A DNA stretch of 51,423 bases from Rudaea sp. (GTDB lineage: Bacteria > Pseudomonadota > Gammaproteobacteria > Burkholderiales > Casimicrobiaceae): the NCBI GenBank assembly GCA_050257435.1, contig JBLMWW010000092.1:1-51423 (forward strand), given 5' to 3'. Below are positions 48,529 to 51,423 of this stretch, piece by piece; positions within the stretch are counted from its first letter, which is position 1; each line of letters starts with the position of its first letter. The position numbers and the translations under genes were made by a program. Under the pieces are notes generated by a model. It searched no databases. It worked only from the letters and a program-made list of their open reading frames with translations, and was not told the DNA's origin.

Positions 48529-48592
48529 CGTCGTGCGCCCCGACGGGCGCTATCGTGCCGAGCGGCCTCCTGTTCGTCGCGCCGACAACGTC

Positions 48593-49174
48593 GTGAACGC
48601 CATCGGCATCATTCATTCCGAGCACCGCTCGCTCGCCGCGGTGCTGCATGCGATGCTCTACTTCGTGCGCGAGATACGACTGCACGGCACCGCGCCCGAC
48701 TTCCGCCTGTTCGGGGCCATGGTCTACTACATCGATACGTTCCCCGAGCGCTTCCACCATCCGAAGGAGGATGCCTACCTCTTCCGCTTCCTGCTCGAGC
48801 GCTATCCCGACGCCCAGCCGCTCGTCGACCGGCTCGCGGCCGAGCATCGCGCCGGCGCGGAGCGCATCGGTGCGCTCACTCAGGCGCTCGAGCGCTACCG
48901 CGCCGGCGGGCATGCCGAATTCGCGCCCTTCGCGCAAGCGGTGCACGCGTACGCGAACTTCCACTGGGATCACATGCGCCTCGAGGAGGACCGCCTGCTG
49001 CCGCTCGCTCGCACGCATCTTCGTGCCGAGGACTGGCAGGCGATCGACGCCGCGTTCGCGGGCAACGTCGATCCGCTGCTCGGCGCCGAGCCGGCGGCCG
49101 AATTCGACGCGCTGTTCCGGCGCATCGTGGCGCTGGCGCCGCCGCCGATGGGCGTCGGTTCCGCACGCGACTGA
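48593..49174 (+). CDS. Hemerythrin/HHE cation-binding domain protein
   Basis: SEHRSL, ERFHHPKEDAYLF, AEHRAG, WDHMRLEE; GTG start inferred. Confidence 0.88.
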   Translation: MNAIGIIHSEHRSLAAVLHAMLYFVREIRLHGTAPDFRLFGAMVYYIDTFPERFHHPKEDAYLFRFLLERYPDAQPLVDRLAAEHRAGAERIGALTQALERYRAGGHAEFAPFAQAVHAYANFHWDHMRLEEDRLLPLARTHLRAEDWQAIDAAFAGNVDPLLGAEPAAEFDALFRRIVALAPPPMGVGSARD

Positions 49175-49205: not shown

Positions 49206-49233
49206 TTGACGCGACGGCGGTGCCGTCTATAAT
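49206..49233 (+). promoter_or_regulatory. Sigma70 promoter of lexA
   Basis: TTGACG (49206-49211), 16-nt spacer, TATAAT (49228-49233). Confidence 0.85.
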
Positions 49234-49236
49234 CAT

Positions 49237-49260
49237 GGTACCGGATATCCATACGGTACC
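49237..49260. promoter_or_regulatory. Candidate non-canonical LexA operator
   Basis: GGTACCG-GATATCCATA-CGGTACC palindrome just downstream of the -10; SOS-box geometry with CCG replacing CTG in both halves. Confidence 0.78.
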
Positions 49261-49264
49261 TTCG

Positions 49265-49948
49265 ATGCCGCTCGCTACCTCGCCGCGCCGGCCGCACGTC
49301 CCCCCGGCCGCCATCGCTCCCGTGCCGCTCACCGCACGCCAGCGCCAGATCCTCGACTGGATTCGCACCTACCTCGAAGCGCACGGGATGCCGCCGACGC
49401 GCGCGGAGATCGCGGGCGGCCTCGGCTTCTCCACGCCGAGCTCGGCAGAAGACCACCTGCAGGCGCTCGCGCGGAAGGGCGCGATCGAGATCCTCCCCGG
49501 CGCCTCGCGCGGGCTGCGGCTCAGGGAATTGCCGGGCGTCCCGGTGCAGGGCACGCTGCCCCTCGTGGGCCGCGTCGCGGCCGGGCAGCCGATCCTCGCC
49601 GTCGAGAACATCGAGGCAAACTATCGCGTCGACCCCGCACTCTTCGTGCCGCGCGCCGATTACCTGTTGCGCGTGCGCGGCGACAGCATGCGCGATGCGG
49701 GCATCCTCGACGGCGACCTTCTCGCCGTGCACCGCACGCACGAAGCGCGCAACGGTCAGATCGTCGTCGCACGCGTCGGCGGCATGGGCGGCGACGAGGT
49801 GACGGTCAAGCGCTTTCGCAAGCGCGCGCGGGACATCGTGCTCGCGCCGGAAAACCGCGCGTTCGAGCCGATCGTCGTCGATCCGCGCACGACACCGTTC
49901 GCAATCGAGGGCGTCGGCGTTGGCCTCGTCCGAAGCGGCGGCTGGTAG
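49265..49948 (+). CDS. lexA: SOS repressor LexA
   Basis: LTARQ...[19 protein letters not shown] cleavage site, VRGDSM catalytic Ser, VTVKR catalytic Lys. Start is uncertain (49265 or 49322). Confidence 0.96.
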
Positions 49949-50008: not shown

Positions 50009-50470
50009 ATGGTCGAACCCATTCCCGCCGGCTATCACAGCGTCACGCCGTACCTGATGGTCCGCAATGCCGCCAAGGCGCTCGCGTTCTATCGTGACGC
50101 GTTCGGCGCCTTGGAAGTGATGCGTTTCGAGGGCCCCGGCGACAAGGTGGCGCACGCGGAGATCAAGATCGGCGACTCGCACGTGATGCTCGCAGACGAG
50201 CACCCCGAGCACGGCTTCGTCGGCCCGCAAACGCTCGGCGGCGCGGGCATCAGCCTGATGCTCTACGTCGTCGACGTCGACAAGACGTTCGCACGGGCGC
50301 TTGCCGCCGGCGCGACCGAACGGCGCGCGGTGGCCGACCAGTTCTACGGCGATCGCGTCGGCACGCTGGTCGATCCGTTCGGGCACGTGTGGTCGATCGC
50401 GACGCATCGCGAGGACGTGTCGCTCGACGAGGTGCGCCGGCGCATGCAGGCGCTGTCCGCCAACGGCTGA
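50009..50470 (+). CDS. VOC/glyoxalase-family (PhnB-like) protein
   Basis: IPAGYHSVTPYL, HAEIKIGDS, DQFYGDRVG, DPFGHVW. Confidence 0.92.
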   Translation: MVEPIPAGYHSVTPYLMVRNAAKALAFYRDAFGALEVMRFEGPGDKVAHAEIKIGDSHVMLADEHPEHGFVGPQTLGGAGISLMLYVVDVDKTFARALAAGATERRAVADQFYGDRVGTLVDPFGHVWSIATHREDVSLDEVRRRMQALSANG

Positions 50471-50487: not shown

Positions 50488-51126
50488 ATGTATACGCTCT
50501 ACGGCAAGCAAGGATCGGGCTCGGCGGCGGTGGAGGCGGCGCTCCAAATCGCGCGCGCGCCGTTTCGCATCGTGGAAACCGCGACCTGGGCGCAAAACGA
50601 CGCCTACCGGGACCTGCTCAAAGCGAACCCGCTCGGGCAGGTGCCGACGCTCGTCCTCGACGACGGCAGCGCGCTGTCCGAAAGCGCGGCCATCCTCATT
50701 CATCTCGGCACCGCGCACCCCGACAGCAATTTGCTGCCGGAGAAAGCGACGAGGCGCGCGCAGGCGATCCGCGGCCTGGTGTTCATCGCCGCCAACTGCT
50801 ATTCGGCGATCAGCATCATCGACTACCCCGAGCGCTGGTGCGCGGACGCCGATCACGACGAGCCGGTGCAGGAACGCATTCGCGCCGGCACGCGGGCACG
50901 GCTTCACCGGCATTGGGAAATGTTCGCCGACGTCTTCCCCGCGCAGCCGTACCTGAGTGGCGCGGACCTGGGCGCGCTCGACCTGCTGGCGGTCGTGGTG
51001 TCGAAATGGGGAGGCGCGCGCCCGCACCTCGCGCAGCATCGCCCGGCTTTCCACGAGGCGCTGATGCGGATCGAAAGCCATCCCCATGTCGCGCCGGTGT
51101 TCGCGCGGCACTGGCCGCCGAAGTGA
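50488..51126 (+). CDS. Glutathione S-transferase family protein
   Basis: SD GAGGAG; NPLGQVPTL, LSESAAIL, PYLSG...LDL. Confidence 0.9.
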   Translation: MYTLYGKQGSGSAAVEAALQIARAPFRIVETATWAQNDAYRDLLKANPLGQVPTLVLDDGSALSESAAILIHLGTAHPDSNLLPEKATRRAQAIRGLVFIAANCYSAISIIDYPERWCADADHDEPVQERIRAGTRARLHRHWEMFADVFPAQPYLSGADLGALDLLAVVVSKWGGARPHLAQHRPAFHEALMRIESHPHVAPVFARHWPPK

Positions 51127-51241: not shown

Positions 51242-51423
51242 ATGATCGTCATGCGCCTCGCCGTCGCGCTTTGCGCGGCGTTGCTCGCGTCCTTCGCATT
51301 GCCTGCCGCCGCGTGGAACCGCATGCAGGCGACGCAGTTCGCCACGTTGCCCGCCGGCACCGCCCACCCCGAAGGCATCACCGCCGATGCGAAGGGCAAT
51401 CTTTACGTCGCCGATTTCGACGT
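51242..51423 (+). CDS. Secreted beta-propeller protein (SMP-30/gluconolactonase-like), 5' part only
   Basis: SD AAGGAG; signal peptide; HPEGITADAKGNLYVADF; runs off the window end. Confidence 0.7.
   Translation, partial: MIVMRLAVALCAALLASFALPAAAWNRMQATQFATLPAGTAHPEGITADAKGNLYVADFD

Follow-up and report, generated by a model that had tools for sequence, protein, structure and literature searches.

A predicted, naturally recoded LexA-operator pair with a CCG-type box in Casimicrobiaceae, and a probable division of SOS control

A close counterpart of the pair reported here is LexA408, whose domain is printed in the supplement of PMC7102963 with the helix GFRSASSAEEHL and together with a promoter that carries CCGT-N8-ACGG sites, matching the altered helix and CCGT half-sites that a first-pass annotation of this DNA had ascribed to it. 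According to PMC7102963 the wild-type operator is not recognised by LexA408, and PMC12430536 gives the change of operator as CTGT to CCGT. No description of a natural CCG LexA box was found in the literature searched, in which the coverage of subscription papers is thin.

In Pseudomonas putida it is the E. coli-type LexA1 that keeps recA, and the box of LexA2 is unrelated to CCG-N10-CGG; for the latter reason the LexA described here is likened to the P. putida/Xanthomonas type and is not filed as a member of it. A non-canonical betaproteobacterial LexA of Sideroxydans and Gallionella, attributed to Sanchez-Alberola in 2015, reportedly has the motif GAAC-N4-GTTC. One of the two LexAs of P. putida is co-transcribed with imuABC (PMC5261740 and PMC9578287), and a Sideroxydans-type LexA stands under the accession WP_013030426.1 in a supplement table. 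PMC8565304 sets out a model of duplication and takeover, by which the SOS network passes to a second LexA; its table of LexAs with known sites holds three Betaproteobacteria, and its supplement is without Casimicrobiaceae.

The window, a stretch of 51,423 nucleotides that makes up contig JBLMWW010000092.1 of a Rudaea sp. assembly (GCA_050257435.1), contains a lexA gene with the following features.

49206..49211, + strand: -35 hexamer TTGACG of the lexA promoter, with the same geometry in 19 of 23 genus loci, its own included
49221..49240, no strand: degenerate upstream CCG box TGCCG-N10-TGGTA, with one core mismatch, overlapping the -10
49228..49233, + strand: -10 hexamer TATAAT of the lexA promoter, 16 bp from the -35
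49239..49258, no strand: main operator TACCG-GATATCCATA-CGGTA, a predicted LexA site over the transcription start
49265..49948, + strand: lexA of E. coli type, 227 aa from the ATG at 49265, matching TIGR00498, PF01726, PF00717 and PDB LexA
49424..49459, + strand: LexA recognition helix, with the Ser41 and Ser42 codons AGC TCG at 49439-49444
49580..49585, + strand: intact Ala-Gly autocleavage site, by alignment to E. coli LexA
49685..49687, + strand: intact catalytic Ser codon, by the same alignment
49808..49810, + strand: intact catalytic Lys codon, by the same alignment

The arrangement TTGACG-16-TATAAT is the sole promoter-like site between 49100 and 51423 (shuffle mean 0.1). The first-pass annotation had claimed a near-consensus promoter followed by a TACCG...CGGTA palindrome, and both are found in the sequence where it placed them. 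On the 5' side of the promoter lies a gene (48590-49174) that is hemerythrin/HHE-domain-like by eye and has no NCBIfam match at 1e-10.

The LexA protein scores 225.9 bits against TIGR00498 (lexA, cut-off 110.95) and consists of a winged-helix DNA-binding domain (PF01726) and an S24 peptidase domain (PF00717). The ATG at 49265 is the likely start, as it is in frame and an ATG is similarly placed in relatives; an alternative GTG at 49322 would give 208 aa. A Pro/Arg-rich N-terminal extension of about 19 residues (49265-49321) precedes the LexA domain, and variable extensions of this kind are general across the genus. Alignment with the PDB structure shows that the helix differs from that of E. 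coli LexA, GFRSPNAAEEHL, by R38S, S39T, N41S, A42S and E45D, with P40 kept. The S39T/N41S/A42S/E45D helix, Ala-Gly site and Ser/Lys dyad proposed from the sequence at first reading are thereby confirmed, with R38S added to the list.

The main box extends to GTACCG-N10-CGGTAC (49238-49259), and its left arm reads CCGG. The pattern TACCG-N10-CGGTA matches once in the window, with no match in any of 100 shuffles, and twice in the 3.66-Mb genome, in which TACTG-N10-CAGTA has no match. From the 24 genomes searched, 22 same-genus lexA loci were fetched, and in 21 of these CCG-N10-CGG lies directly after the -10, while the 22nd (L012) carries a CTG/CCG hybrid; the palindrome is thus conserved 5' of orthologous lexA genes, a point on which the earlier proposal had been left to depend. 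Of 56 S41 loci, 23 show an upstream box with a complete CCG..CGG core 18-20 bp from the main box, and in a further 15, the window among them, this core contains one mismatch. Canonical Burkholderiaceae lexA promoters show the same tandem layout of boxes, but with CTG. Read from the sequence, the window holds a real, conserved and naturally recoded LexA-operator pair.

The relation between helix and box was followed across a wider set of lexA loci. A helix-first scan of named genomes, in which S42 was required and position 41 left free, gave 119 loci among an estimated 640 stretches; pooling with further loci, and dropping duplicates, three unreadable helices and chance matches to proteins other than LexA, left 120 distinct lexA rows. 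The 55 rows with N41 comprise 48 with CTG in both arms, two near-CTG and five with no box called, and none has CCG. The 59 rows with S41-S42 comprise 53 with CCG in both arms, three with one CCG arm and three with none; two of these last are truncated loci, and in the third (G204) a CCG box is found 1.6 kb ahead of the gene. At this third locus (L605 and L371, G204:C34:11130-13306) two inserted genes separate the CCG-boxed promoter from lexA, and imuA directly follows lexA. CCG is likewise found in six of six A41-S42 rows, and the full LexA408 triple, A40-S41-S42, in 40 of the 53 S41 rows with CCG in both arms. In Paraburkholderia, where P40A and A42S occur with N41 kept, the box stays CTG.

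A second scan, of metagenomes for helices without N41, returned 106 loci, which are biased to R/K38 and were not deduplicated. Here 89 rows have S41-S42, of which 74 have CCG in both arms, two in one arm and seven no box, six are too short and none has CTG in both arms; the A41-S42 rows have CCG in both arms (two) or in one (one). T41-A42 accounts for 11 rows, eight with CTG in both arms, three with no box and none with CCG, and three rows with T41-S42 or S41-A42 complete the set. Among 401 genomes of the order, helices that combine a small residue at 41 with S42 are confined to two families. Across both collections the type of box follows the helix, as the idea of co-variation between TPSS-type helices and CCG boxes had predicted. 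This amounts to a testable helix code, in which S41-S42 or A41-S42 goes with CCG, and N41 (with any residue at 42) and T41-A42 with CTG. Since the rows are kin and the pattern amounts to two changes on the tree, no p-value is attached to it.

Loss of N41 as the switch by itself was considered and rejected, given the T41-A42 rows. N41S does not by itself make up the switch, as CTG is retained with T41-A42 and with N41-S42. The proposal of a naturally evolved specificity switch close to that of LexA408 stands in respect of the recoded pair. It is conceivable that a small residue at 41 and a hydroxyl at 42 together accommodate C:G where N41/A42 read T:A. Four loci of E. coli type have diverged helices, STNGVFKHL (L426, G114), STNAVFKHL (L433, G244), SRYAAQRHI (L435, G263) and SINAAVDHL (L424, G086), and no CTG or CCG box was called within 300 bp upstream of them; these helices are possible further motif switches.

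Beyond lexA the number of strong CCG sites is small. A matrix built from the lexA boxes of relatives places three sites at the top of the genome: lexA itself (30.5 bits), C124:7909 (30.1 bits), which is the start of a 100-aa ORF, and C77:1089 (18.7 bits), which is the start of dnaE2.

C124:7607-7928: small ORF of 100 aa, present in 21 of 61 genomes of the genus, with a CCG box that abuts its ATG

When the matrix is rebuilt from 31 dnaE2 and small-ORF boxes of relatives, the main box at lexA ranks first in the genome (29.5 bits), and only three genome sites exceed 13 bits, namely lexA, the small ORF and dnaE2. Among column-shuffled matrices (n=30) none reached 28.9 bits and three reached 20.9 bits, the score of this genome's dnaE2 box, which has one degenerate arm, somewhere in the genome. 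A further site near an Rrf2-like gene (C41:40321) was dropped, as it scored 17.6 bits with the first matrix and 7.3 with the rebuilt one. The consensus of the 31 boxes, TACCGTATA-NN-TATACGGTA, is of the CCGT-N8-ACGG operator type.

Across the genus dnaE2 has a CCG box at 30 of 30 loci and GAAC at none (best 30 of the 60 genus genomes that gave a match). For the small ORF the box is present at 18 of 21 loci, the misses being partial or stop-containing matches. Because lexA boxes had served as the seed of the matrices, these tallies are not blind to the motif. The small ORF has no NCBIfam or Pfam match, falls into Atlas clusters that are only hypothetical, and has 229 homologues without a name; it is a candidate damage-inducible gene. 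As to dnaE2 in this genome, an in-frame tandem insert is seen at residues of about 300-363, at a contig break (C77:1-200). In another genome a strong CCG box (L259, G047:C14:9410-9429) lies about 480 bp before an ORF that is IS21 transposase-like by eye.

The mutagenesis genes imuA and imuB are connected to the box through their position. In 20 of 20 genomes for which both coordinates are available, imuA follows lexA on the same strand at a distance of 0.1-3.6 kb. It has a CCG box of its own at one of 30 loci; its control therefore rests on a putative operon with unrelated genes between. Three such genes follow lexA in the window.

50009..50470, + strand: ORF of 153 aa, VOC/glyoxalase-like by eye, inserted between lexA and imuA, with no NCBIfam match and in the same order in G007
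50488..51126, + strand: glutathione S-transferase-like gene (NF007831 below cut-off), inserted between lexA and imuA, in the same order in G007
51242..51423, + strand: first part of a gene that continues past the contig end and whose G007 ortholog (weak NHL-repeat ScyF match) directly precedes imuA-imuB

The first of these is possibly co-transcribed with lexA. The dnaE2 gene has been split off and sits, with a box of its own, 7-20 kb downstream. In the relative G007 the order is lexA, the three inserted genes, imuA, imuB and then dnaE2 with its own box. The imuA promoter region of the genome studied here is unassembled, imuA beginning at the end of contig C77, and the two contigs probably join, since the third inserted gene is where the window breaks off and imuA is where C77 begins. 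CCG boxes are also present in G007 at two repair-associated radical-SAM genes, of the PA0069 and TIGR03916 families. In the present genome no CCG box was found upstream of dinB, uvrB or the PA0069 radical-SAM gene, in an assembly of 301 contigs from which sites may for that reason be missing.

That the sites simply drifted to CCG in a genome of 69% GC, under a Ser41-Ser42 LexA which reads CTG and CCG about equally, would be in keeping with this small regulon, where few sites need to change, and with base composition, since GC rises with either change, T to C or A to G. Hybrid sites also occur, at the main box of L012 and the upstream box of L007, and these mean that some tolerance of CTG is possible. 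We nevertheless consider drift improbable. The spacers of the boxes remain AT-rich, and every one of the 31 dnaE2 and small-ORF boxes has the C in both half-sites (62 of 62), although these boxes were picked with a CCG-seeded matrix. Furthermore, T41-A42 loci at 0.61-0.70 GC keep CTG, as do Cupriavidus and Paraburkholderia, and the reported failure of LexA408 on the wild-type operator (PMC7102963) also speaks against equal reading of the two sites. A LexA recoded for CCG is the reading that is followed below.

The recA gene is associated with a different motif. An exact GAAC-N4-GTTC precedes recA at 29 of 30 loci and CCG at none (best 30 of 56 genus loci), the sole miss having just 26 bp of upstream sequence available, and against the CCG matrix no recA promoter exceeds 5.5 bits. 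The same motif is found at a second LexA gene.

C124:19099-19674: second LexA (L004), with the helix GLRSKSSVAAL and with Ala-Gly, Ser and Lys present

This protein is 33% identical to the LexA of the window, falls just under the TIGR00498 cut-off, and has two GAAC-N4-GTTC sites of its own, of which one is in the promoter and the other covers the start codons. It is present in 59 of 61 genus genomes and patchy in the order (66 of 251 genomes); GAAC-N4-GTTC occurs at its own promoter at 27 of 30 loci and also precedes a gene for a UvrD-like helicase. A search at 1e-40 gave no plasmid match. The motif at both the second lexA and recA fits a Sideroxydans-type non-canonical betaproteobacterial LexA, and the second LexA is likely to control recA. 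With CCG at dnaE2 and lexA, and GAAC at recA and the second LexA, SOS control is probably split.

This result bears on a larger claim of the first-pass annotation, namely that the CCG box runs the whole SOS regulon. The genome scan it called for finds the box at lexA, dnaE2 and the small ORF, and at none of recA, dinB and uvrB; canonical CTG boxes at recA, which were to count against the recoding, are not what was found there either, since recA carries the third motif.

It is very unlikely that the helix changes are a coincidence and that a protein other than this LexA, be it the second LexA or some unrelated regulator, binds the CCG palindrome. A GAAC-N4-GTTC site with CC/GG flanks does also fit CCG-N10-CGG, and some lexA boxes start TACCGAAC. 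One composite site of this kind (L299, G079:C15:9603-9622) lies before an extra copy of the second-LexA type. Against a different binder, the CCG box has the same spacing, flanks and tandem arrangement as the CTG boxes of canonical lexA promoters, the recA promoters score poorly on the CCG matrix, and in a further family (f16), where lexA-recA and imuA carry CCG boxes, none of the genomes sampled has the second LexA (0 of 6). Control of the whole regulon by the CCG LexA, recA included, scarcely deserves weight either: recA does follow a CCG-boxed lexA in f16 (lexA-recA-recX) and two radical-SAM genes have the box in G007, but the genus recA tallies and the presence of just three strong CCG sites in this genome oppose it.

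Instead, with good confidence, the Ser41-Ser42 LexA is judged to bind the CCG palindrome in place of CTG and to govern a mutagenesis sub-regulon within a split SOS network. A LexA dimer bound to the main box, which directly follows the -10, and more weakly to the upstream box, would block transcription of lexA, and by synteny the same block would extend to the downstream imuA-imuB. LexA would also repress dnaE2 and the 100-aa ORF through their own boxes. Upon DNA damage RecA* would promote Ala-Gly cleavage of LexA, as expected from the intact site and dyad, while recA, the second lexA and the UvrD-like helicase would answer to the second LexA. The sequences themselves, their conservation, the co-variation and the motif that each gene carries are observed, and binding, repression, induction and operon structure are in each case deduced from these.

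The distribution of the two motifs in the family gives some indication of how the switch may have arisen. In genera g19 and g20 the lexA operon and dnaE2 carry CCG and recA carries GAAC, and the earliest-branching genus of the family already has CCG boxes. Genus g18 lacks the second LexA; its helix has N41, and CTG boxes lie between its lexA and recA genes, which are divergent. In the RecA tree g18 falls within the family, at the end of a long branch, and its LexA groups with other families; this suggests that the g18 LexA is more likely a replacement. The view of g18 as the ancestral state is likely wrong, given its nested position and the CCG boxes of the earliest-branching genus.

Outside the family, f16 combines A41-S42 with CCG boxes at lexA-recA-recX and imuA-imuB, and its lexA appears to be leaderless; the second LexA is absent in six of six sampled genomes, and one genome (G039) has another divergent LexA paralog. 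Thirteen two-LexA genomes from outside the family include none with CCG in both arms at lexA and seven with CTG, and have no exact GAAC-N4-GTTC within 330 bp of recA. The idea that a second LexA first freed the old one to drift was rejected on these grounds: with CCG in f16 in the absence of a second LexA, and two LexAs in 13 genomes in the absence of CCG in both arms, a second LexA is neither required nor enough. A regulon of two to five sites may have been the enabling factor, and is a likelier one than the second LexA. In a free LexA tree with the helix columns masked the two CCG clades are separate; a single CCG clade is not rejected by the AU test (p 0.365, or 0.217 with G204 added).

We tentatively put forward that the switch from CTG to CCG took place twice in nature, by Ser41-Ser42 in Casimicrobiaceae and by Ala41-Ser42 in f16, and that Casimicrobiaceae represent a half-way SOS takeover in which the second LexA captured recA and the old LexA, orthogonal to CTG-boxed phage and plasmid genes, keeps the mutagenesis module; this is a possibility that we hold at somewhat less than even. 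If true, recombination repair and mutagenesis would be tuned separately.

By established LexA logic, an incoming gene with a CTG box would go unrepressed in hosts with a CCG LexA. The 18-base CCG pattern occurs in two viral stretches and its CTG version in about 1000 (an estimate), and the viral CCG matches (two in one scan, five in another) lie mostly in coding or unrelated contexts. This rarity reflects host abundance as much as anything, and is not taken as selection for insulation. On one viral contig of 44% GC (L468:1501-1520) a perfect CCG box covers the leaderless start of a cro-like gene that is divergent from a cI-like gene, and may be the phage's own operator.

A master regulator would have changed its site by one base per half-site through two residues, by the route taken in laboratory selection. 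Scans for the standard CTG box would take these widespread bacteria to lack SOS control of their mutagenesis genes, and natural CCG LexAs are candidate orthogonal repressors for E. coli circuits. The split network would also supply a natural intermediate for the model of takeover by a second LexA in PMC8565304. The impact is moderate, as LexA motif changes and two-LexA splits are each known already.

With LexA408 and its operator op408 (PMC7102963, PMC12430536 and PMC8222386) the LexA of the window shares N41S, A42S and the CCG half-site. It is without P40A, and has R38S, S39T and E45D, which are absent from LexA408; most relatives do have P40A, and a metagenome locus (L650) reads GFRSASSAEDHL, identical to LexA408 except for E45D. 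LexA408 and its operator are a laboratory pair, whereas the LexA of the window is natural, full-length and chromosomal, with a conserved regulon. It resembles the E. coli-type LexA (TACTG-N10-CAGTA, PMC9578287) in its TIGR00498 match, 20-bp layout, TA flanks, AT-rich spacer, tandem boxes and cleavage residues, and differs from it in having CCG in both arms, Ser41-Ser42 in place of Asn41-Ala42, and recA outside the predicted regulon. As in P. putida and Xanthomonas (lexA2-imuA-imuB-imuC), there are two LexAs with separate boxes, one of which heads an imu cassette apart from recA, here at the level of motifs. The roles are however reversed, since here an E. coli-type LexA with a one-base switch heads the cassette and the divergent LexA would hold recA. 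The second LexA differs from that of Sideroxydans and Gallionella in coexisting with an E. coli-type LexA that appears to keep the mutagenesis genes. Finally, the probable division in Casimicrobiaceae matches the intermediate stage of the takeover model, as given in PMC8565304.
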